A DNA stretch of 32,000 nt from Delftia acidovorans NBRC 14950 (GCF_001598795.1 NZ_BCZP01000005.1:305026-337025), one strand, 5' to 3'; shown: positions 4,025 to 31,799, counted from the first letter of the stretch. Program-made: numbers and translations. Notes: a model not told the origin generated them from the letters alone.

Positions 4025-5686
4025 TTACTTCAGTGCCTTGTAGCGCATGCGCTTGGGCTTGGCACCCTCCTCGCCCAGACGCTTTTTCTTATCGGCTTCG
4101 TACTCCTGGTAGTTGCCGTCGAAGTACACCCATTGCGAATCGCCTTCGGCCGCCAGGATGTGCGTGGCGATACGGTCGAGGAACCAGCGATCGTGGGAGA
4201 TCACCAGCACCGTGCCCGCGTACTCCAGCAGCGCATCTTCCAGCGCGCGCAGGGTTTCCACGTCCAGGTCGTTGGAGGGCTCGTCCAGCAGCAGCACGTT
4301 GCCGCCCTGGATCAGCGTCTTGGCCAGGTGCAGGCGGCCGCGCTCGCCGCCGGAGAGGTTGCCGACCTTCTTTTGCTGGTCCTGGCCGTTGAAGTTGAAG
4401 CGGCCCGCGTAGGCACGCGACGCCATCTGGAACTTGCCGACGTTGATGATGTCCAGCCCGCCCGAGATGTCTTCCCACACCGTCTTGTCGTTGGCCAGCG
4501 CGTCACGCGTCTGCTCCACATAGGCCATCTTGACCGTCTGGCCCACGATGACTTCGCCGGAGTCGGCCTGCTCGCGCCCCGCGATCAGCTTGAACAGCGT
4601 GGACTTGCCGGCACCGTTGGGGCCGATGATGCCGACGATGGCGCCAGCGGGGATGTTCATGGTCAGGTTGTCGATGAGCACGCGGTCACCAAAGCTCTTG
4701 GTGACGTTGTTGAACTCGATGACCTGGGTGCCCAGGCGCTCGGCCACAGGAATGAAGATTTCCTGGGTTTCGTTGCGCTTTTGGTATTCGAAATCGCTCA
4801 GCTCCTCGAAGCGCGCGATACGGGCCTTGGACTTGGTCTGGCGGCCCTTGGCATTCTGGCGAACCCACTCCAGTTCCTTCTTCAGGGCCTTGGCGCGGGC
4901 TTCCTCGCCCTTTTGCTCGGACTCCAGGCGGCTTTGCTTCTGGAACAGCCATTCGGAATAGTTGCCCTTGTAGGGAATGCCGTGGCCACGGTCCAGTTCC
5001 AGAATCCACTCGGCAGCGTTGTCCAGGAAGTAGCGATCGTGGGTGATGGCCACCACGGTGCCGGTGAAGCGGTGCAGGAACTGCTCCAGCCATTCCACGG
5101 ACTCGGCATCCAAGTGGTTGGTGGGTTCGTCAAGCAGCAGCATGTCGGGCTTGGACAGCAGCAGCTTGCACAGGGCCACGCGGCGCTTTTCGCCACCGGA
5201 CAGCTTGCCGATCACGGCATCCCAGGCCGGCAGGCGCAGGGCGTCGGCAGCAATCTCCAGCTGGTGCTCGGAGTCGGTGCCGGCAGCGGCGATCTTGGCT
5301 TCGAGCTCGCCTTGCTCGGCGGCCAGCGCGTCGAAGTCGGCATCGGGCTCGGCATAGGCGGCGTAGATTTCATCGAGGCGCGAACGGGCCGCGTTGACTT
5401 CGGCCATGGCCTCTTCCACGGCCTGGCGCACGGTGTGCTCCGCATTGAGCTGCGGCTCCTGCGGCAGGTAGCCGATGGACAGGCCCTGCATGGGCAGCGC
5501 CTCGCCTTCGAATTCCTTGTCCACCCCAGCCATGATCTTGAGCAGCGAGGACTTGCCCGAGCCGTTCAGACCCAGCACGCCGATCTTGGCGCCCGGGAAA
5601 AAGCTGAGAGAGATGTCCTTCAAGATCTGCCGCTTGGGCGGCACGGTCTTGGTGAGGTGGTTCATCGAGAAAACGTATTGAGCCAT
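4025..5686 (-). CDS. ettA: energy-dependent translational throttle protein EttA (ABC-F ATPase)
   Basis: Canonical EttA N-terminus MAQYVFSMNHLTKTVPPKRQILKDISLSFFPGAKIGVLGLNGSGKSS. Two Walker A motifs (GLNGSGKS, GPNGAGKS) and two LSGGE(K/R) signatures. Length is 553 aa from Met31 of the tracked ORF. Confidence 0.93.
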   Translation of the reverse strand: MAQYVFSMNHLTKTVPPKRQILKDISLSFFPGAKIGVLGLNGSGKSSLLKIMAGVDKEFEGEALPMQGLSIGYLPQEPQLNAEHTVRQAVEEAMAEVNAARSRLDEIYAAYAEPDADFDALAAEQGELEAKIAAAGTDSEHQLEIAADALRLPAWDAVIGKLSGGEKRRVALCKLLLSKPDMLLLDEPTNHLDAESVEWLEQFLHRFTGTVVAITHDRYFLDNAAEWILELDRGHGIPYKGNYSEWLFQKQSRLESEQKGEEARAKALKKELEWVRQNAKGRQTKSKARIARFEELSDFEYQKRNETQEIFIPVAERLGTQVIEFNNVTKSFGDRVLIDNLTMNIPAGAIVGIIGPNGAGKSTLFKLIAGREQADSGEVIVGQTVKMAYVEQTRDALANDKTVWEDISGGLDIINVGKFQMASRAYAGRFNFNGQDQQKKVGNLSGGERGRLHLAKTLIQGGNVLLLDEPSNDLDVETLRALEDALLEYAGTVLVISHDRWFLDRIATHILAAEGDSQWVYFDGNYQEYEADKKKRLGEEGAKPKRMRYKALK

Positions 5687-5953
5687 TCTGGTCCGAGTAC
5701 TTGAATCGTTGATTTCTGCAAAAACCGGGCAACAAATCGGTTGCACGCCAGCCGTGATTATCGGCGCATGCGACAATACCCTGCGTCACGGGTTCCAGTT
5801 GCCCGTGACATCAGCATTCCAGCTGGGGACGATGGACGCTGTTTTCCAGGCTCCCGACATTGAACTACATCCGCCTACGACTGGTCCGGCAACCGCCCTG
5901 GTTGCCTCGACAGGCAGATACCCAGCGCCCCGGACGGGCGCATCTTTGATCAC

Positions 5954-22313: not shown

Positions 22314-22390
22314 TGGGGTGGCTGATGGGGCTCGAACCCACGACAACAGGAATCACAATCCTGGACTCTACCAACTGAGCTACAGCCACC
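22314..22390 (-). tRNA. tRNA-His (anticodon GTG), copy 1
   Basis: The reverse complement folds as G-1 + GTGGCTG acceptor, GCTC..GAGT D arm, CAGGA-TTGTGAT-TCCTG anticodon arm, GTGGG-TTCGAGC-CCCAT T arm, then CAGCCAC-C-CCA. Confidence 0.92.
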
Positions 22391-22644: not shown

Positions 22645-22721
22645 TGGGGTGGCTGATGGGGCTCGAACCCACGACAACAGGAATCACAATCCTGGACTCT
22701 ACCAACTGAGCTACAGCCACC
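22645..22721 (-). tRNA. tRNA-His (anticodon GTG), copy 2
   Basis: Sequence identical to copy 1. Confidence 0.92.
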
Positions 22722-22794: not shown

Positions 22795-24690
22795 TCAGGG
22801 GCGCGGGACCTTGATCTGCACCTTGAGCTGTTTCTTGAGAAGCTCGTAGTATGCCATAGCTTCTGCGACCGCAGAGCTTCGCAGGAAGTCCTGCTTCTGC
22901 GCGGCAGCAGCCTGTGCATCATCGGCCGGGCGCTCGACGATGCGGTTGATCTTGACCACGGCATAGCCTTGGGCACCCATGTCAACACCAGTCCAGGCAG
23001 GCAGCTGAGCGGTCGGTGCGCGCAGGGCGGCATCCACCACTTCGCGCGACAGGCCTTCGGGCTGGTCACGGCTGATCACCTTGGCGGCAGGCAGTTGCGC
23101 CGCATCAGGCTTGGCCTTCCATGCGGCGAGCTTGGCCTCGCCATCGGCCTTGGCCAGTTCGGCGGACTTTTGCGCCACGTACAGGGTGCGCAGCTTGTCG
23201 CCGACCTCGGCCATGGGCAGCGTGCGGGCAGGCGTGTACTCCACCACACGGCCGGCCACCAACTGGTTGGAACCCAGCTCCACCGCATCGGTGTTGCGCT
23301 TGTTGTTCAGCGAATCGCTGGAGAACAACGCTTCCAGGAAGCGTGGATTGGCCAGGGGGCCCTTGACGTTGGGGCCGGGCTGGCGCGTCACATGGTCTGC
23401 CTTTTGCACGGTGAGCTTGAACTTCTCGGCCACGGGCTGCAGGCTGTCCGACTGTTCGTAGACGGCATTGGAGAAACCTTCCGCCAGTTCGGCGAACTTG
23501 CGCTGGGCCTGCTGCTGCTTGAGTTCGGCTTCCAGCTTGGGACGCATCTGCTCGAAGCTCGGAGCCTTGGGCTTCTTGATGTCCACCAGCGAGATGATGT
23601 GGTAGCCGAAGTCGCTGTGCACCACGTCGCTGATGTCGCCGACCTTCATGCCGAAGGCTGCGTCCTCGAAGGGCTTGACCATGGCACCGCGGCCGAAGTA
23701 GCCCAGATCGCCACCCGATGCAGCGGAGCCACCGTCCTGCGAATTGGCCTTGGCCAGTTCGGCGAAGCGCTTGGGGTCCTTGCGCAGCTCGGCCAGCAGT
23801 TCCTCGGCCTTGGCCTTGGCTTTTTCCTGCTCGGCAGCAGGCGCATCCTTGCTTGCATTGATCAGGATGTGGCTGGCACGGCGCTCTTCGGGGCCGGCCA
23901 GGCGCTCGGCGTTCTGGTTGTAGTAGGAACGCACATCGTCTTCGCTCAGCGTGATGCCGGCCTCGATGCTGGGAACGTCCAGCAGCAGGTATTCCACCTT
24001 GGCCTGCTCCGATTGCTGGAACTGGCTGGTGTGGGCATCGTAGTAGGCCTTGAGGTCTGCCTCGGTGGGCTGGACCTTGCTGGCGTAGGCGCTGGCTTCA
24101 AAGCGGGCCACCTGCACTTCGCGGCGCTGGTACAGCGCATCGATAGCCTGCTTGACCTGGGTGTCGGTCGCAAAGGCCGTACCCGTCACGCCACCCATCA
24201 CCTGGTTCATGGACAGCTCGCGGCGCAGGTTGGCCTCGAAGCCTTCAGGCGTCAGGCCCTGAGATCCGACCAGGGCACGGTAGGCCTCGGCATCCATCGA
24301 GCCGTCAGGCTTCTTGAGCGCGGCAATCGCGGGGATCTCCTGCAGCGTGCGCACCAGTTGCGCATCGGACGCTGCCAGGTGCATCTTCTGCACGGCGGCG
24401 GCCAGCACCTGGTCACGCACCATCTTCTCCAGCGTGGCGTAGCGCGCCTGCGGTGAGTCCAGCAGCTTGGGGTCGATGTTGGGGTTCTCGGCGCGCAGGC
24501 GATCACTCTCCATGCGGTGCGCGTTCTCCCAGTCGGCCTGCTTGATCTCATGACCATCGACACGTGCGACGATGACGCTGGACTCTGTGAAGTAGTTCTG
24601 GTTCACACCCACGAAGATGAACGAGGGAATGATCAGCAAGAACAACAAGATCATCACGAACTTGGAATGCTTGCGGATGGATTCGAACAT
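22795..24690 (-). CDS. ppiD: periplasmic chaperone / peptidyl-prolyl isomerase PpiD
   Basis: Start [28 protein letters not shown] (N-terminal membrane anchor). Parvulin domain [11 protein letters not shown]...[21 protein letters not shown]...SDFGYHII. Length is 631 aa. Confidence 0.9.
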
Positions 24691-24714
24691 GGTCTGTCGT
24701 CTTTCAATGGCAGA

Positions 24715-24746
24715 AATAGAAAAGGCGAACTTTCGTTCGCCTTTTG
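24715..24746 (-). terminator. rho-independent terminator following the tRNA-Val remnant
   Basis: Stem AAAGGCGAAC (24721-24730) / GTTCGCCTTT (24735-24744) with loop TTTC. A T-rich tract follows on the minus strand. Confidence 0.7.
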
Positions 24747-24750
24747 TTCT

Positions 24751-24799
24751 TGGTGGGTGCTGACGGGGTCGAACCGCCGACCTACGCCTTGTAAGGGAA
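24751..24799 (-). other. 3' fragment of tRNA-Val(TAC): anticodon loop to CCA only, a prophage attachment-site remnant
   Basis: The reverse complement reads CC-CTTACAA-GGCGT-AGGTC-GGCGG-TTCGACC-CCGTC-AGCACCC-A-CCA. No matching 5' acceptor (GGGTGCT), D arm or 5' anticodon stem lies upstream. Confidence 0.75.
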
Positions 24800-24949
24800 A
24801 ATTCCACCATTACAAATCAATAGCTTACAGCGTCTACCAACTTCGTCCCACCAGCTTTAAGAGGTCGAAGCGAAACATTCTACTTTCTCCAGCACATCAG
24901 CCTCCCGGTTCGCCGGGTCATATACGCCACAGCGCGGGAACGCGCTGAC

Positions 24950-24984
24950 TTGAGGGGATCGCCGGTTACTGTATATTTATACAG
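24950..24984 (+). promoter_or_regulatory. sigma70-like promoter overlapped by a LexA (SOS) box, upstream of umuD
   Basis: TTGAGG (24950-24955), 16 nt, then TATATT (24972-24977). A perfect CTGT-N8-ACAG palindrome CTGTATATTTATACAG lies at 24969-24984, 17 nt before the umuD ATG. Confidence 0.85.
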
Positions 24985-25000
24985 CACAAGGAATTCGGCC

Positions 25001-25444
25001 ATGCCCCACCTCATCACCTCCTCACAACCAGTTGCGGTCACCATGCCGCTAACACCGCTGCCGGCCCCCAACAGCCCAGTGCGCGCTGGCTTTCCCAGCC
25101 CCGCCGAAGACTTCAGTTGTGCGCGCATCGATCTGGCCAAAATCATGGTCAAGCATCCCCAGTGCACGTTCCTGCTGCGCGTCCGCGGCGACTCGATGAT
25201 TGGGGCAGGGATCTTCGACGGCGACCTGTTGGTGGTGGACAAGTACTTGCGCCCCCAGCATGGCGACATCGTTGTGGCTGAAGTTGATGGCGACTTCACA
25301 TGCAAAAGATTCTGGGCCAGGTATGACCAGGTGATGCTCCGCGCCGAGAACCCCACATACCCAGACATCCGTGCGAAAGAAGGCCAACAGCTGGAGATCT
25401 GGGGCGTGGTGACGTGCGCCGTCAAGTCGTTCCGCTCATTGTGA
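25001..25444 (+). CDS. umuD: translesion-synthesis protein UmuD (S24 self-cleaving peptidase)
   Basis: AAGGA SD. Cleavage-site region VRAGFPSPAEDF, compared with E. coli QCGFPSPAADY. Ser in RGDSM and Lys in FTCKRF form the dyad. Confidence 0.88.
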   Translation: MPHLITSSQPVAVTMPLTPLPAPNSPVRAGFPSPAEDFSCARIDLAKIMVKHPQCTFLLRVRGDSMIGAGIFDGDLLVVDKYLRPQHGDIVVAEVDGDFTCKRFWARYDQVMLRAENPTYPDIRAKEGQQLEIWGVVTCAVKSFRSL

Positions 25445-25453
25445 GATCAGGCC

Positions 25454-26740
25454 ATGTTCGCGCTGCTGGACGGCAACAATTTCTACGTGAGCTGCGAGCG
25501 CGTGTTCCGCCCGGCGCTCAAGGGCCTGCCTGTAATTGTCCTGAGCAACAACGACGGCTGCGCCATTGCCCGGTCGGAGGAAGCCAAGGCCCTCGGGATC
25601 AAGATGGGCGAGCCATTCTTTCAGATCAAGCACCGCATCCACCAAGGCCTTGTCGCCCTGTCCGCAAATTTCGTGCTGTACGGAGACATGAGCGACCGCA
25701 TGATGTCCCTTGCCGCAGGCCTAGGGCCAGAACAAGAGATTTACAGCATCGACGAATGCTTTATCGGCCTTGCTGGCGTGCACGACGTGACACGCAGATC
25801 ATGGGCAATCCGTGATCGCATCTTGCGGGGCGTGGGCATCCCCACGTGCATCGGCATCGGCCCCACGAAGACTCTGGCGAAACTTGCCAATCATGTGGCC
25901 AAGGACGCGGAGCGCAAGCCGGGCAGCTACCCGAAGGAGCTGGCTCAGGTGTGCAACCTCACTGAGCTACCAACTGCACAGCTTCGAGAATTGCTGGAAA
26001 GCACGCCTGTGGGTGATGTCTGGGGCGTTGGCCGACGAATCAAGATGCGCCTCTTGGATCACCAGATTTATACGGCATGGGATCTCGCTCAGGCACCACA
26101 GGCCCTGGTGCGCTCACACTTCGGCGTGGTCCTTGAGCGCACGGCGCGGGAGCTTCAAGGCACTTCATGCTTGGGTCTTGAGCACGAGCCGCCGCCAAAG
26201 CAGCAAATTGCATGCACGCGCTCATTCGGCAGACCAGTCACTGACCTCGCCCCGCTGATTGAGGCCGTATCGACATTCGCGCAGCGGGCTGCCGAGAAAC
26301 TGCGTGCGCAGAACAGCAGGGCCGGCGCCGTGCATGTTTTCGCGCATACCAGCCCATTTCGTGACGGACCACGGTTTGCCCGCAGCACCACCATCCAACT
26401 CCCACAGCCCAGCAGCGACACGGCGCTGCTGGTGCGTGCTGCAGCGCGCGGGATCGCCAAGATCTACGAGCCCGGCTATCAGCTCTCGAAGGCCGGCGTG
26501 ATGCTGCTGGATCTCACCCCTGTTTCGATACAGCAAGCCTCATTGCTCGATGAGCCTAACGTCTATGCACGCGACCACAGCCCCCTCATGGAGGCCATGG
26601 ACCGACTCAACGAGCGCTATGGCAAGGGCACGTTGGGAGTGGCCAGCGCATTGCAGGTGGCCGGCTGGGGCATGCGCCAGGACCGCCGCACCCCCCGATA
26701 CACCACGGACCTGCACGACATCCCCATCGCACGAACCTGA
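25454..26740 (+). CDS. umuC: Y-family DNA polymerase V catalytic subunit UmuC
   Basis: MFALLDGNNFYVSCERVFRPALKGLPVIVLSNNDGCAIARSEEAKALGIKMG is a typical UmuC/RumB N-terminus. SIDECF motif present. Length is 428 aa. Confidence 0.9.
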   Translation: MFALLDGNNFYVSCERVFRPALKGLPVIVLSNNDGCAIARSEEAKALGIKMGEPFFQIKHRIHQGLVALSANFVLYGDMSDRMMSLAAGLGPEQEIYSIDECFIGLAGVHDVTRRSWAIRDRILRGVGIPTCIGIGPTKTLAKLANHVAKDAERKPGSYPKELAQVCNLTELPTAQLRELLESTPVGDVWGVGRRIKMRLLDHQIYTAWDLAQAPQALVRSHFGVVLERTARELQGTSCLGLEHEPPPKQQIACTRSFGRPVTDLAPLIEAVSTFAQRAAEKLRAQNSRAGAVHVFAHTSPFRDGPRFARSTTIQLPQPSSDTALLVRAAARGIAKIYEPGYQLSKAGVMLLDLTPVSIQQASLLDEPNVYARDHSPLMEAMDRLNERYGKGTLGVASALQVAGWGMRQDRRTPRYTTDLHDIPIART

Positions 26741-26753
26741 CCTGGAGATCGTT

Positions 26754-26969
26754 ATGAAAATGTCTCTCGAAGTTGAGCTTTATCCCACTTTGCTCACAAT
26801 ACCCCGTTGGTTCGGAACGCCAGAAGTGCAGATCCTGCCCGGCCTGCCTGAGCATTACTTCATAAATGAAGTGGAGCCCGGATGGTTTGTTGTGAGGGAT
26901 CTAGACAATGACCTGATTTACAGCGGTCTCGGGCCAGTGTCTGTAGAACGTTCGCGAGCACCATTTTAA
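26754..26969 (+). CDS. hypothetical 71-aa protein
   Basis: The ATG lies 13 nt after the umuC stop and 5 nt after GGAGA. G+C is intermediate (near 48% by my rough count). No motif recognised. Confidence 0.45.
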   Translation: MKMSLEVELYPTLLTIPRWFGTPEVQILPGLPEHYFINEVEPGWFVVRDLDNDLIYSGLGPVSVERSRAPF

Positions 26970-27124
26970 GATGCAATGGATGGATACGTGTTTATCATAC
27001 AATTTCTTCGGGAACTGCTGCTGTACGTTTGCGGCCCGCCTTCGTCAAGGTCACTAACTGATATAGATAGATTTTGAACAATATCAACCAAACAACGGTT
27101 TTTAGTCATCAACAGGATCACTAG

Positions 27125-27940
27125 ATGAGTACAAATGACAGTCTTCAGTTTTTTCTTCGCCTACTGACGCAAAAACATAGTGCACTTCAAGTAGGATTAA
27201 ATAATTTCCTTGGCGAATTGATTGGAAACGACCCAAAAGCGAAGAAACAAGCAGCAGAAACACTCATAAGAACCGCCAATGATTTGAAAGCTGTTTTATC
27301 AAAAAAAGATATACCCCAATGGCTTTCATCCTTAATTGCTCATCTAACTAATTATTTGTCAGGAACCAGTTCCCCAAATGATATTGTGCGAGGCTTTTTA
27401 CCTCTAAAAGTTGCACTTGATGAACATGTTTGGTCTTTTGAACAAAACCCAGAAGCTTCTTTTGATTTTGATTCAATATTTGAGCATTATAAAAAAGAAA
27501 GCCGTCTACCCCAACTTTTCGACGAGATAGTTGAACTACTTGAAGAAATTCAAAATAGTGGCGAAGTGGATAGCCTTATGATGCTACGCGCCCTCGGCAA
27601 GGTGATCGCCACAATAAAACGCTCCAAAGACGGTTCATATTTCTCAATGAACAGCGCGTGGGATTTTCTTTTAAACTTTCTCAATAACTACTTACTTGCA
27701 GAGCTTTCGAAAATTCCTGTGCTAGGCACTGCCTTGGAAGCGCTGGAAAAAACGATCAAGGAGGCTGATGCAGAAATGTGTAGTTTGCACAAAAATTTAC
27801 GGAATGAATTAATTCGCGTAGTAGGGGAAGATGTAAAGGCATTATCTAGAAACGCATCCTTTCCATTCCTAACATACAACGAATCTGGCAATCTTCAAAC
27901 CCCCAAGCCAATTCCACAACTGCCTAACGTTATTACTTAG
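27125..27940 (+). CDS. hypothetical 271-aa protein, predicted all-helical, on AT-rich foreign DNA
   Basis: It is the only long ORF in a strongly AT-rich stretch (22 G/C in the 59 nt I counted at 27121-27179). It has Lys/Asn/Leu/Glu-rich heptad-like helices. No TM segment or catalytic motif recognised. Confidence 0.7.
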   Translation: MSTNDSLQFFLRLLTQKHSALQVGLNNFLGELIGNDPKAKKQAAETLIRTANDLKAVLSKKDIPQWLSSLIAHLTNYLSGTSSPNDIVRGFLPLKVALDEHVWSFEQNPEASFDFDSIFEHYKKESRLPQLFDEIVELLEEIQNSGEVDSLMMLRALGKVIATIKRSKDGSYFSMNSAWDFLLNFLNNYLLAELSKIPVLGTALEALEKTIKEADAEMCSLHKNLRNELIRVVGEDVKALSRNASFPFLTYNESGNLQTPKPIPQLPNVIT

Positions 27941-27949
27941 CACAAGAAC

Positions 27950-28177
27950 TTAATTTGATACAGGCTCGGGACTTGCGGCGACATCCAATCTTTCCCAGAC
28001 TGCTACATCACAGGCTGGACGTCCCCCGTGCTGACGCGATGGCCCGCAGTTCGCGTAGTCCGAAGAAGTTGGTACCCAGCCCTGCACCGCGCCAGCGTCG
28101 ACGATGCATTCGCGCGAGTGGCGGCCATCGGTAGCGCAGCAGTTGGTGCCTTAGCAGTCGCAGGTGTGTTGTGTCAT
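27950..28177 (-). pseudogene. Cys-rich small ORF interrupted by an in-frame TAA after codon 8
   Basis: The ATG overlaps the lipoprotein stop (ATGA). It reads MTQHTCDC-TAA-GTNCCATDGRHSRECIVDAGAVQGW... The region after the stop has high third-position G+C but no start codon of its own. Confidence 0.4.
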
Positions 28178-28518
28178 GGGTGGCTCTCTGTGGTGGTGCC
28201 TGCGGCCGGCAGGCTCGGAGAAATGGGGCGGTGGCAGTTCGCGAGGGCTGCGGTCAGCCGGATTTCGTAGGCCTCGCGCCGCTCAATCTCTGCCTGGGCT
28301 GCCTGCGTGAATTGGTCCACCGTGGCGCCTGGGCGCAGCTGCTCGGTTTGCCTGGCCGGGCGCTCGGGCACCGGCTCGACGCAAGCCACTGGCACAGGCA
28401 CGTTGACCCGCTGCAGCTCGATGCGTGCTGGTGGGGTCTGACACCCGGCCAGGGCCAGCACGGCAGCCGCAAGCACAGGCCAACGGCTGGAATATTTCCG
28501 GGAATAAATTTCGCTCAC
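28174..28518 (-). CDS. phage lipoprotein (proline-rich, Rz1 / exclusion-lipoprotein-like), function unknown
   Basis: GTG start 8 nt after GGGGAGG. Signal peptide with lipobox LALAGC, then a Pro-rich stretch QTPPARIELQRVNVPVPVACVEPVPERP, then a short helical segment. Confidence 0.65.
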   Translation of the reverse strand: MSEIYSRKYSSRWPVLAAAVLALAGCQTPPARIELQRVNVPVPVACVEPVPERPARQTEQLRPGATVDQFTQAAQAEIERREAYEIRLTAALANCHRPISPSLPAAGTTTESHP

Positions 28519-28622
28519 TTTTGCGACCTCCCCTGCAGCCAGTTGTCCACCCGGTGCAGGGCGCTCGCACAGGTATCGTTCAGAACGGCCGGCAGCGCGG
28601 CCAGGATCTCGTCGACGCGCTG

Positions 28623-28766
28623 TTAATGTGTCCAGGCTCGGGCTGCTGCGTTGGCTCGCGCGGCTTCGCCCTCTCTCTTGCGCCGGTCAGCCAACTCCCG
28701 CAGGTCATCGACAGCATCGCTGCAGGCGGCAGCCAAGTCGCGGGTGCCGTCTCGCTGCTGAGTCAT
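28623..28766 (-). CDS. small 47-aa ORF; an 82-aa reading frame continues past its TAA
   Basis: MTQQRDGTRDLAAACSDAVDDLRELADRRKREGEAARANAAARAWTH-TAA-QRVDEILAALPAVLNDTCASALHRVDNWLQGRSQK*. The post-stop part has very high GC3 (31 of 35 codons by my count) and no start codon. Confidence 0.35.
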   Translation of the reverse strand: MTQQRDGTRDLAAACSDAVDDLRELADRRKREGEAARANAAARAWTH

Positions 28767-28960
28767 CTCGCCCACGCTGGCGCGCTCTGTTGTGGCGGTG
28801 CACGCTGGCTCAGGTAGGCCCTGACCAGCAGTGCGTTGCCGAACAGGCTCGCCAGCAGCGCGAGGACAGCAGCCGTACCTAACTCTGACAGTGGTTAATC
28901 TAAGAGAGAGACGCCCCCCCGGCGAATTCAAGCAAATATCTTACAGAAACCAACCGAATC

Positions 28961-29704
28961 TCAGCGAATGAGATTGCTCTCCCGCAAGGCTTCTTTTTGC
29001 TCCAACATTCGTTTGAAGTCAGGGTTAAGATTTGAAACGATCGATTGACCCAGTAAGATATCGGTCCCTGCAACCATATGAGCTGAGCAGTACATCCAAT
29101 CAAGCGTATCTTCGGTAAAAAATGAGCGCCGTACCGGATCGTGTACCAACTCATGCCGCAAATCGAAAAGCATTTTCAGTTTAGTCAAAGAGCTTTCCTC
29201 GAACGTTGATTCTGTCCCAGGCTGATCTTTTAATCGAATTTGCATGCCGATCACGTTACTCCACAATCCGCCTTTGGGGAGAAACTTCGAAAACACTCTG
29301 TCAATTCGGTCAATATTCTGAAAGGACTGAGAGGCTAGTACAATGTCCAGTGGATGCACATTGTGTTCGTAGAATTCTAAGATTTCGGCGACATCATACT
29401 TCTCAGAATGCAATTGCTTAAGGTGAGGCTCAAAGAAGGATGGTTCACAGCTCTTAAAAATGAGCGATAGCAAGTCTTTATAATACACCTCAATACTTGT
29501 CACAGTCGTGATAACTGCCGACCGTTCAAGTAAGTTTGCCACCTCGGTATTCAGCTCCCCTTCCAAAATAAGCTCGCCCGCCTTAGCGCATTGAGCGAAC
29601 GATTCATAAAAAATCTTGAATGGCCGCCCAAGCCGTTCTGAACGGTTTTGCCTACTTTGAAGTATTTTGTTTAGGTCCATATTTACATATCTTAGCGTAG
29701 GCAT
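28961..29704 (-). CDS. HEPN-like protein (R-x4-H motif), candidate abortive-infection RNase, on AT-rich foreign DNA
   Basis: 247-aa ORF in an AT-rich island. RHELVH lies at residues 183-188 (nt 29141-29158) in LFDLRHELVHD. The upstream helices AVITTVTSIEVYYKDLL and SFQNIDRIDRVF resemble the RiboL-PSP / MAE_28990-type HEPN layout as I remember it. Confidence 0.6.
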   Translation of the reverse strand: MPTLRYVNMDLNKILQSRQNRSERLGRPFKIFYESFAQCAKAGELILEGELNTEVANLLERSAVITTVTSIEVYYKDLLSLIFKSCEPSFFEPHLKQLHSEKYDVAEILEFYEHNVHPLDIVLASQSFQNIDRIDRVFSKFLPKGGLWSNVIGMQIRLKDQPGTESTFEESSLTKLKMLFDLRHELVHDPVRRSFFTEDTLDWMYCSAHMVAGTDILLGQSIVSNLNPDFKRMLEQKEALRESNLIR

Positions 29705-29837
29705 CTGAAAGTATGGTTATCTTTGGCGGTCCATCGCTGCACGCGTAGCTGGTACACACGCCGGTCAGCGCGCCACCTTCGGTCAAGCCTCCCGCATCAG
29801 CGCGGCGTCAGCGGCGTGGCCCTCAGCCGCTCGCAGC

Positions 29838-30368
29838 CTACTGCGCCGCCTCGGTCATCGCGCGGCCGGCATCGTAGGCCCGCTCGCAGGCGCCACCCCG
29901 GCCTCGGGCATCGTCAGCAATGCGCGCCAGCTCTCCCGCTCGCTCATCAGCGCGGCGCTGCAGGTCGGCGAGCAGATCGAGGGCGCCGGTGTCTGGCGCG
30001 CACTGTCCGGCAGCGGCGCGAGCCTGAGCGGCGGCACGGTGGGCCGTGATGTAGTCGGCGAGGTCGCCGCGCAGCCGGCCAGCAGCAGCGCGGGCAGCAG
30101 CAGCGTCCACTGCAGCGCGCGCCTGCGCCTGGTGCGCATCACGGGTGACGTTGTCGAGATTTTCACGGTAGGTGCCTTCCAGTTTTCGGTATCGCTCTGA
30201 CGCCAGTAGCGCCGCCGTAGCGGCTGCCTCGCGATCGCTGGCCATCTCGCTACGCGCCTGCGCGGCATCGCGCTCGGCGGCAAGCCGCCCCAGGGCCTGC
30301 CATGCAAGCAACGCCGCCAGCACCAGGGCCAGCGACTGCCACGCATAGGCCTTGAGACCGGCGATCAT
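29838..30368 (-). CDS. i-spanin (Rz-like, DUF2514-type)
   Basis: The ATG overlaps the endolysin stop (ATGA). It has an N-terminal TM segment AWQSLALVLAALLAWQAL followed by a long Ala/Arg-rich coiled coil. Confidence 0.75.
   Translation of the reverse strand: MIAGLKAYAWQSLALVLAALLAWQALGRLAAERDAAQARSEMASDREAAATAALLASERYRKLEGTYRENLDNVTRDAHQAQARAAVDAAAARAAAGRLRGDLADYITAHRAAAQARAAAGQCAPDTGALDLLADLQRRADERAGELARIADDARGRGGACERAYDAGRAMTEAAQ
29855..30139 (-). CDS. o-spanin (Rz1-like lipoprotein) embedded out of frame within the i-spanin gene
   Basis: MRTRRRRALQWTLLLPALLLAGC lipobox, followed by a Pro-rich mature part (SRPTVPPLRLAPLPDSARQTPAPS). It lies entirely inside 29838..30368 in another frame, as in lambda Rz/Rz1. 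Confidence 0.75.
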   Translation of the reverse strand: MRTRRRRALQWTLLLPALLLAGCAATSPTTSRPTVPPLRLAPLPDSARQTPAPSICSPTCSAALMSERESWRALLTMPEAGVAPASGPTMPAAR

Positions 30369-30979
30369 GGTGCCGCCCGTACCGCGACCAGCGCTGCGCT
30401 GAAATGCCCGTCCCTGCCCCACTGTGCGCACAGCTCGCGGGTGGCATCGCGGCGATCAACAAGGCCAGGCAGCCGCGTGGGCACGCCGTTCACGGTGCCG
30501 TGGACCCATCGAGGCATCTGCAGGCATGCAGCATCGAGTTGCCCGGCGTTCGCCAGCCGCATGACCGTCGTGTCAGGTGCCAGCGCCGAGGGCACGTTGT
30601 AGGCCATATCGATAAAGCTGGCCTGCACCCACACGTTGTAGCTGTCCCAGTTCCGCAGGGCGCGGCGCGCCAGGCGCTCGGCCTCACGGTATTTGGGTCG
30701 CTCCAGGCGCTCGCAGTCCTCGGGCTTGTAGTAGCGCCCCGCCACAACTTCGGTGCCTGTGACGCCCGCGCAAACTGTCAGCGGCTGGCCCTTGCCCAGG
30801 CGGTCAACGTAAGGCGTGCCGATATGCCGGCCGCTGCTCTCGTAGTGCAGCCCGATCTCGCGGGCCAGCGTCACGGCAGCGCTGGGCCTGGTCTCCTGCG
30901 TGGCGACATAACCACCGGCAGCGGTGGCTGCCAAGCCGGCGGCCGTAGCCAGCAGTCGATTACGCAATATCTCGTTCAT
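30365..30979 (-). CDS. phage endolysin, GH24 lysozyme-like, with SAR-type N-terminus
   Basis: Weakly hydrophobic Gly/Ala-rich N-terminus LLATAAGLAATAAGGYVA. Motifs YESSG...YVDRLGKGQPLTVCAGVTG, SFIDMAYNV and GLVDRRDATRELC are as in P21-type lysozymes. The ATG overlaps the holin stop. Confidence 0.75.
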   Translation of the reverse strand: MNEILRNRLLATAAGLAATAAGGYVATQETRPSAAVTLAREIGLHYESSGRHIGTPYVDRLGKGQPLTVCAGVTGTEVVAGRYYKPEDCERLERPKYREAERLARRALRNWDSYNVWVQASFIDMAYNVPSALAPDTTVMRLANAGQLDAACLQMPRWVHGTVNGVPTRLPGLVDRRDATRELCAQWGRDGHFSAALVAVRAAP

Positions 30980-31278
30980 CGGCCACCTCCGCCAATGGTC
31001 AGCGCCTTCCAGAAGGCCAAGCCTGCGCTGGCCATCATCACGATGTAGGTGATGGGTTTGGCCACCTTGCCGATCCAGTTGAGCACCTTGAAAGCGCCCT
31101 GCGCGGCGGCGAAGAACTCCACCATTTCGGCCGTGTTGACACGAACCTTTTCCGTGGCCTCGGTGTTTGCGCGCAGCTCTGCCTCGATGCGCGTCATGCG
31201 CGCATCCCCCTCGTCCAACCGCGCATTGATGGTCCGCGCCGTGTTCGGAGTGATTGCGTTTCCATAGTCGTCCTGCAT
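30976..31278 (-). CDS. putative holin / small membrane protein
   Basis: AGGAG SD overlaps the upstream stop codon. The 100-aa product has C-terminal hydrophobic segments (AFKVLNWIG, ITYIVMMASAGLAFWKAL). It lies immediately upstream of the endolysin. Confidence 0.5.
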   Translation of the reverse strand: MQDDYGNAITPNTARTINARLDEGDARMTRIEAELRANTEATEKVRVNTAEMVEFFAAAQGAFKVLNWIGKVAKPITYIVMMASAGLAFWKALTIGGGGR

Positions 31279-31286
31279 GGGCACTC

Positions 31287-31799
31287 CTAAAGCGTTGCCG
31301 CCAAAACAAAGGCCTCGTCCAGGGATTGGGGAGTGCCTCCAAGCTGCGCCCAAAGACCTGCAAGAAACGGGTTGCCACGCTCCCAGGTGTCGGCCTCGTA
31401 CTCAATTTGAGCCTCACGCTTTTGCACTGGGTCCGTGATCGCCGCAATGGCCGCCTCGGCTTCATCGAGCATCCCGAATGCAAGAAGGGCAAGACGCCCC
31501 TGCCGGCGCGTGCAGGACTTGGGGATCAGCGCGGCCGCAGCCTCATCGCGTAGGCGCTGCAGCTCGGCCAACTCCTCTTCGGACAGCGGCACGACGGACC
31601 ACTGCTGCCGCCACACGCCGTCGATTTCCATAGGCTCGATCTCGACGGGCTTTTGCGTGTCCGCGTCGTAAGCGGGCGCATCCGATGGCTCAACGAGCGC
31701 ATAGCACTCCAGATGCTGGGCCATCATCGTGAGCGGGTGCAGCTCCTGGATCTGAGCAACGCTCAGCGGGTATTGCCCGGTTTCGGTGTTGATGTACAT
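31287..31799 (-). CDS. phage protein downstream of tail fibre (tail-fibre assembly / DUF4376-like)
   Basis: The ATG lies 5 nt after GAGGA. The call rests on its position after the tail-fibre gene and on the C-terminal half RRQGRLALLAFGMLDEAEAAIAAI...IEYEADTWERGNPF, which resembles that family from memory. Confidence 0.45.
   Translation of the reverse strand: MYINTETGQYPLSVAQIQELHPLTMMAQHLECYALVEPSDAPAYDADTQKPVEIEPMEIDGVWRQQWSVVPLSEEELAELQRLRDEAAAALIPKSCTRRQGRLALLAFGMLDEAEAAIAAITDPVQKREAQIEYEADTWERGNPFLAGLWAQLGGTPQSLDEAFVLAATL

Follow-up and report, generated by a model that had tools for sequence, protein, structure and literature searches.

Accessory cargo genes of prophages, integron gene cassettes whose function is unknown (gcus) and damage-induced prophage umuDC morons are all known already. 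The classical lambdoid and HK97 morons of Juhala, Hendrix and colleagues, from 2000, are said to carry their own promoter and terminator, and P2/P4-type hotspots for defence and counter-defence genes have reportedly been described in prophages and satellites by Rousset and colleagues in 2022. A damage-induced prophage umuDC/rumAB moron, umuD-rumB, is found in the cryptic prophage CP5 of Acinetobacter baumannii ATCC 17978 (Hare et al. 2014, PMC3978071), and approximately one-third of the mobile-integron cassettes of unknown function put to the test gave resistance to phage (bioRxiv 10.1101/2024.07.02.601719). Here we analysed a 32,000-nucleotide (nt) stretch of Delftia acidovorans NBRC 14950 (NZ_BCZP01000005.1:305026–337025; hereafter the window, with positions counted from its first nucleotide), centring on an operon of umuD, umuC and a small gene, orf71, and on the gene behind it, orf271, which encodes a protein of 271 amino acids (aa). 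The window contains the left end of a prophage of Delftia/Comamonadaceae, inserted beside ppiD, with umuD-umuC-orf71 as its first transcription unit. In the best overall explanation, to which we give an even chance, orf271 is a former integron cassette gene that lies in a variable slot behind this operon and would be expressed by read-through from the LexA-controlled umuD promoter. The slot 3′ of orf71 would have received an AT-rich piece of ~1.07 kb carrying orf271 in this lineage, and the gene, its attC site lost, would be read as the 3′ part of a lengthened umuDC-orf71 mRNA, kept off by LexA in the lysogen and switched on by DNA damage, which is the signal that usually induces prophages.

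Operon layout, LexA box and variable slot

umuD, umuC, orf71 and orf271 all lie on the + strand. umuD (25001–25444) encodes 147 aa with an S24 peptidase domain only (Pfam PF00717 Peptidase_S24, 3e-31; PHROG 811, UmuD-like) and umuC (25454–26740) a 428-aa Y-family polymerase (Pfam IMS PF00817, IMS_C PF11799 and DUF4113 PF13438; PHROG 1268, 1e-136); judged by these domain matches, both genes are genuine, a UmuD with a self-cleaving S24 peptidase domain being followed by a Y-family UmuC. The umuC stop codon (TGA, 26738–26740) is separated by 13 nt (cctggagatcgtt) from the ATG of orf71 at 26754, with a Shine–Dalgarno sequence, GGAGA, at 26744–26748. orf71 (26754–26969) encodes a small acidic protein, ends with TAA at 26967–26969 and has a conserved third place in the umuDC operon of the prophage. 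An AT-rich leader of 155 nt (26970–27124, + strand, GC 0.41) then precedes orf271 (27125–27940), which starts with ATG at 27125 and has a ribosome-binding site (RBS), AGGA, at 27114–27117, 7 nt 5′ of the start. The predicted umuD promoter (24950–24984, + strand) consists of TTGAGG-16-TATATT at 24950–24977, and its −10 element is overlapped by a LexA box, CTGTATATTTATACAG, at 24969–24984. This box is the sole perfect match in the 32 kb to CTGT-N8-ACAG, the LexA box pattern used for Beta- and Gammaproteobacteria. The initial annotation, made from the sequence alone, had described the 13-nt spacing with its GGAGA, the 155-nt gap, the shared orientation and a LexA-repressed promoter at 24950–24984, and every one of its coordinates and strands was correct.

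Look-ups of orf71 homologues led to many genomes of Delftia/Comamonadaceae and to IMG/VR prophages, all with the gene order ppiD-umuD-umuC-orf71-lysis genes, and the LexA box is kept in all 12 of the sister loci that include the promoter region. Nucleotide homology (blastn) to these sister prophages stops at 26967, at the orf71 stop codon, and resumes at 29824, just past the Rz stop, which delimits a variable cargo slot (26968–29823) from the orf71 stop to the end of the Rz spanin gene. Most sister prophages have a gene of 92–95 aa (orf92) on the same strand 12–21 nt after orf71, which is missing in the window. Every variant has a + strand gene right after orf71, including five of five in which orf92 has been replaced. 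In base composition orf271 (GC 0.39) departs from umuC (0.62).

The position of orf71 is far more constant than that of the slot genes, as it lies directly 3′ of umuC, at a distance of 13–19 nt, in every related locus having upstream sequence (L017–L024, L026, L027, L031, L033, L035 and L036). Its ratio of nonsynonymous to synonymous substitution rates (dN/dS) is 0.05–0.13, compared with 0.06–0.08 for umuC. Because it follows umuC in all these loci and is under strong purifying selection, orf71 is by these sequence measures a fixed member of the operon and not foreign cargo. The initial annotation had called both downstream genes foreign, which is wrong for orf71 and leaves only orf271 as variable cargo. 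The GC content of orf71 (0.50, and 0.51 at third codon positions, GC3) differs from that of umuC (0.62, GC3 0.74), and orf71 may be an older addition to the operon, yet a fixed one. Two exceptions to the linkage were observed: of umuC, the metagenome contig of the closest relative, L025, retains no more than a 100-nt remnant upstream of the main copy of orf71, and an orf71 homologue in Acidovorax phage AP1 (51% identical) has no umuC nearby. The AP1 genes upstream of that homologue were considered as umuC remnants and rejected, showing no similarity. The family is small, with 18 homologue clusters, all from Comamonadaceae, and the AlphaFold2 (AF2) model of the window protein is unreliable (pLDDT 42). 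orf71 stands as a conserved and unexplained third gene in a prophage Pol V operon. L025 also carries a second orf71 paralogue, 55% identical, within a run of four small + strand open reading frames (ORFs) at 221–1939, and this run begins 54 nt from a gene on the opposite strand encoding an SOS-response-associated peptidase (SRAP).

The orf271 family and integron cassettes

Close homologues of orf271 number 129, come from Beta-, Gamma- and Deltaproteobacteria and are all labelled hypothetical. A profile search of 1.84 billion representatives recovered 496 clusters (50% identity), whose members, among the matches listed, are of 260–285 aa when full length and include no fusions. The window protein is soluble and acidic, and its classification as a transmembrane protein was rejected on a maximum 19-residue hydropathy of 1.1. 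AF2 confidently predicts an all-helical protein of nine helices (pLDDT 82.6, pTM 0.52), and Foldseek comparison of this model with PDB and BFVD gave a best E-value of ~0.4 at a TM-score of ~0.2, that is, no fold relative in either database. Neither orf271 nor orf71 matched Pfam, PHROG, PADLOC (E ≤ 1) or NCBIfam, and profile searches of PDB with both gave nothing below E = 0.1. A Pfam scan (E ≤ 1) of 126 diverse orf271 relatives returned scattered coiled-coil noise, with the top family in 8 of 126, and a literature search by homologue accessions and a locus tag found no papers on the family. The model and the library searches together agree with the earlier description of the 271-aa protein as helical and motif-less. 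With ~500 clusters from proteobacteria and one planctomycete, this single-domain family is widespread and sizeable, and the libraries searched contain no relative of it in sequence or fold.

The genomic context of orf271 was assessed in 46 loci outside the window lineage, comprising 16 genomes, 1 viral contig and 29 metagenome contigs. Across the 16 genomes there is no conserved neighbour, with mixed housekeeping and island genes around the homologues, which in most of these genomes lie 10–20 GC points below their flanks. UmuC, UmuD, orf71 or a HEPN gene was found near orf271 in none of the 46 loci, within 5–10 kb where the contig reaches, many metagenome contigs being much shorter. Linkage of orf271 homologues to umuDC or orf71, a check raised by the initial annotation, is thus not seen outside this lineage; because none of the 46 loci has UmuC, UmuD or orf71, comparative context argues that orf271 is no functional partner of UmuDC or orf71 and that their association is positional, in one prophage lineage.

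Instead, many orf271 loci have GTTAGTGCTA (or GTTAGTACAA) 17–25 nt before the start codon, and the reverse complement, TAGCACTAAC, at the stop of orf271 homologues. On their sequence, GTTAGTGCTA and TAGCACTAAC are an integron's attC core sites, R′ and R″, of the kind that bounds cassettes. By a criterion of at most 1 mismatch over 10 nt (core sites R″ RYYYAAC and R′ GTTRRRY), cassette boundary ends are present in at least 17 of the 41 testable loci, including the planctomycete copy. The Vibrio aestuarianus copy lies between Vibrio cholerae repeat (VCR)-like repeats in an 18-repeat array, and the attC of another locus (L001) folds better than shuffles (z = −3.3). In Colwellia sp. (CP182631, L011 4000–15000), an orf271 homologue is embedded in an array whose unit of ~340 bp is repeated at least 15 times; with its unusually short and regular unit, this array may be either a mini-cassette integron array or another class of repeat. 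The uncharacterised family of orf271 is elsewhere mostly a promoterless integron gene cassette, with a leader of only 17–25 nt, which makes it more likely that orf271 depends on an upstream promoter.

The window gene is part of a prophage, where it falls between orf71 and the lysis genes, and not of a cassette array, no search for intI having been made. It has an RBS context, AACAGGATCACTAG, like that of the homologues, but the 155-nt leader in front comes from elsewhere, and by comparison with the homologues both it and the L025 copy are stranded ex-cassette genes. Degenerate attC remnants proposed at 27044–27108 (5′) and 27915–27990 (3′) were rejected, both folding like shuffles. A LexA box search upstream of orf271 homologues gave one distant match only, 368 nt upstream in L006. 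No match to orf271 came from a tblastn search of 50,697 phage and 72,556 plasmid records. In a Mu-like phage from IMG/VR (UViG_3300008488_000022, L028), a 48%-identical homologue at 1461–2273 sits in the head operon, in that operon's orientation, with gpG (virion morphogenesis) on one side and the gpI protease on the other, and is a second, independent phage capture of a gene of this family.

Expression and role of orf271

Read-through is the most economical route of expression for orf271, because cassette genes of its family come with next to no leader and so with no promoter, and orf271 is co-oriented with the operon and preceded by no recognisable terminator, rut-like bias or strong promoter. 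The terminator scan found no hairpin plus T-run on the + strand between 24745 and 29900, the RNA of 26930–27135 folds no better than shuffles (z = +0.8), no rut-like C>G or C-rich bias was found in the leader, no promoter scoring at least 9/12 was found in the 155-nt gap (26970–27124), and no Rfam family was found in 24500–28200. Of the earlier read-through proposal, co-orientation, a conserved LexA box, the lack of a recognisable terminator and the lack of a consensus-grade promoter in the gap have stood, and the foreign nature of orf71 and the linkage of orf271 to its neighbours have not. Spacing and the lack of recognisable signals leave us about evenly divided on whether orf271 is co-transcribed with umuDC-orf71, and from the same kind of evidence we infer SOS control of orf71 and orf271.

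Several points weigh against this explanation. The missing signals count for little: both scans apply consensus rules and have little power in this high-GC genome, the terminator scan almost none; 20 kb of host DNA gave 13 terminator-like sites where 8.9 were expected, and zero promoter-like sites. The visible absence of a terminator between umuC and orf271, although true by scan and by fold, is therefore weak evidence. The 155-nt untranslated gap could permit Rho-dependent polarity, and a convergent transcript of the lysis genes, which has no visible terminator, could interfere. AT-rich DNA in a GC-rich host often yields fortuitous promoters or is silenced. The window copy has no cassette ends: its best match has 3 mismatches, and 195 of 200 shuffles did as well. 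Nor do its flanks show an attC fold, folding like shuffled sequence. The 84%-identical L025 copy is likewise without cassette signatures, and the cassette origin of the window copy is drawn from its homologues. Furthermore, the sister prophages are related, so the umuC linkage of orf71 and the + orientation of the slot cargo are not fully independent observations.

The main rival to read-through is a weak promoter at 26971–26998, which would make orf271 an autonomous moron, expressed from its own AT-rich leader independently of LexA in the lysogen and merely adjoining umuDC-orf71. We consider this possible, at clearly less than an even chance. The candidate, ATGCAA-16-TATCAT, is the best lenient match in the gap and has a good −10 (TATCAT, 5/6). 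It falls in the only well-conserved part of the leader relative to L025, an alignment in which the first ~35 nt and the last ~13 nt are conserved and the middle has diverged. A sister prophage (L035) has a 9/12 promoter-like site before its cargo gene, and some homologues (for example, L013) are divergent from their upstream neighbours and hence independently transcribed there; genes that protect a lysogen are usually expressed in it. However, the window candidate reaches only 8/12, with a poor −35 (3/6), a scan of the gap at 9/12 finds nothing, and the cassette homologues, with their leaders of 17–25 nt, suggest that the gene brings no promoter.

It is improbable that orf271 is a silent or decaying passenger, a stranded cassette fragment with no current role. 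The window has only degenerate versions of its attC and cassette boundaries, it is an AT-rich gene in a GC-rich host, it faces convergent late transcription without a terminator, and a 603-bp segment downstream (28042–28644) that is absent from L025 shows a region in flux. Against decay, the ORF is full-length with all family-invariant residues aligned, dN/dS is 0.21 when it is compared with the 84%-identical copy in L025, the RBS is still a good one and the arrangement is identical in other, independent sequencing runs. By these comparisons, orf271 is intact and maintained under purifying selection. Very improbable is a dedicated SOS module in which orf71 and orf271 are both partners of UmuDC (regulators, sensors or scaffolds of Pol V), an idea that draws on the tight and consistent linkage of orf71 to umuC and on the second orf71 paralogue of L025, 344 nt from the SRAP gene, but is opposed by the finding of 0 of 46 other orf271 loci near UmuC, UmuD or orf71, by the replacement of orf271 with unrelated genes in sister prophages and by the AP1 orf71 homologue that lacks umuC; for orf71 taken alone, a partnership with UmuDC may hold.

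For function, our best guess is an activity that is self-contained and phage-related, for example in defence, exclusion or counter-defence. A phage-related role is favoured because orf271 is a single mobile gene that occurs in integron arrays, was captured a second time inside a Mu-like late operon and sits in a prophage slot where a candidate defence gene and a HEPN protein are found elsewhere; the published one-third rate of phage resistance among tested cassettes serves as a prior. No specific function is supported by PADLOC, Pfam, PHROG, NCBIfam, PDB or BFVD, all of which were negative, and this too counts against the reading. Should its expression be timed to SOS or to the late phase, orf271 could as plausibly act during induction as in defence of the lysogen. 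In a broader and rather unlikely extension of the read-through explanation, the 3′ end of the operon would be an SOS-driven expression slot, comparable to that behind the integron promoter Pc, for exchanged, co-oriented and promoterless cargo (orf271, a PDC-S59-like gene and an AcrIF11-like gene), with orf271 as a captured cassette encoding a new single-protein, all-helical family whose phage-related activity is timed to damage or induction. Under this extension, the independent capture of a homologue by a Mu-like phage, within its late operon, would agree with the protein acting in lytic development. As a single and intrinsically mobile gene, orf271 is a cheap candidate for phage-defence and counter-defence screens.

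Slot contents and comparison with known systems

Behind orf271, the window slot contains the 603-bp high-GC piece, a further high-GC stretch and a second low-GC island with a HEPN gene. The 603-bp segment, whose absence from L025 was determined by blastn, holds an ORF on the − strand (28174–28518) for a 114-aa lipoprotein with the lipobox LAGC (PHROG 3580, 7e-12, function unknown), which could be a stand-alone o-spanin or an exclusion lipoprotein. The high-GC stretch (~28645–28960) is shared with L025 and has only an unsupported 102-aa ORF (28623–28931), which was considered as a duplicate of Rz and rejected, with no significant similarity. The second low-GC island (GC 0.44), directly after the Rz gene and convergent with orf271, carries a gene on the − strand (28961–29704) for a 247-aa RiboL-PSP-type HEPN protein (Pfam PF18735, 1e-7, above the gathering score), 96% identical in L025 and without a PADLOC match. 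A two-gene system of orf271 and this convergent HEPN gene was also considered and was rejected, since the two are adjacent only in the window lineage and L025 and in 0 of the 46 loci elsewhere. The conserved right border of the slot is formed by the lysis genes (29838–31492, − strand), namely an Rz-like i-spanin (29838–30431; Pfam DUF2514) and an endolysin (30365–31492; Phage_lysozyme), with PHROG matches 312 and 7. The window endolysin is of 375 aa, with its lysozyme domain at residues 227–350, and may have an N-terminal extension or a start called too far upstream; several sister prophages have an endolysin of ~204 aa (66–69% coverage, tblastn), and the long form is also present in L032 and L035.

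The other occupants of the slot are diverse, comprising orf92 alone, orf92 accompanied by a Dam methylase and three further ORFs, an integrase, and uncharacterised proteins 361, 332 and 170 aa long. In L035, a 488-aa AAA protein in the slot (4273–5739, + strand) matches the PADLOC candidate PDC-S59 (3e-71). In L022 (6609–7252, + strand), and also in L023, a slot protein has a precomputed annotation as an AcrIF11-like ADP-ribosyltransferase and is accompanied by a 63-aa KorA-like helix-turn-helix protein; our own Pfam scan did not reproduce the AcrIF11-like annotation. At the left end of the prophage, just before umuD, a sequence similar to a tRNA 3′ half, with T-arm, acceptor and CCA (24749–24795, − strand), was read by eye and is probably the attL remnant in a tRNA gene beside ppiD; ARAGORN calls no tRNA and Rfam gives no match at 24749–24795. 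It adjoins a bidirectional hairpin with a perfect 11-bp stem at 24720–24745. Two tRNA-His(GTG) genes (22314–22389 and 22645–22720, − strand), 330 nt apart, lie just upstream of ppiD.

If read-through is true, the prophage would have wired a normally Pc-dependent cassette gene to the SOS signal, which would imply direct cassette traffic from integrons to phage accessory slots and provide a simple way of timing accessory genes to prophage induction.

Compared with the known systems, the locus is a combination of familiar features. Like CP5, it has an error-prone polymerase operon at the prophage end by the attachment site, an SOS-type repressor and lysogenic-conversion cargo, but whereas CP5 is under UmuDAb control, the window operon has a canonical LexA box, as well as a conserved third gene, orf71, and a variable cargo slot at its 3′ end. 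Like gcus, the orf271 homologues are single-ORF units with leaders of ~20 nt and no recognisable domain, bounded by inverse-complement core sites (GTTAG.../...CTAAC) and in at least one case located in a VCR-type array; unlike them, the window copy lies outside an integron with no foldable attC or boundary signature, and its family is not among the 72,556 plasmids. In common with classical morons, orf271 is absent from close relatives at the same position, deviates in base composition and lies between conserved modules, but no recognisable promoter or terminator is found at the gene, which is placed instead as a 3′ extension of an SOS operon. As in P2/P4 hotspots, a fixed slot with conserved flanks has exchangeable content, including the PDC-S59 candidate, HEPN, Dam methylase and the AcrIF11-like protein (precomputed), but this slot lies between umuDC-orf71 and a lysis cassette and most of its occupants, orf271 included, have no validated defence role. 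The modestly interesting twist is an ex-cassette gene placed where an SOS operon can drive it, which leaves current concepts unchanged and is a well-delimited lead rather than a surprise.

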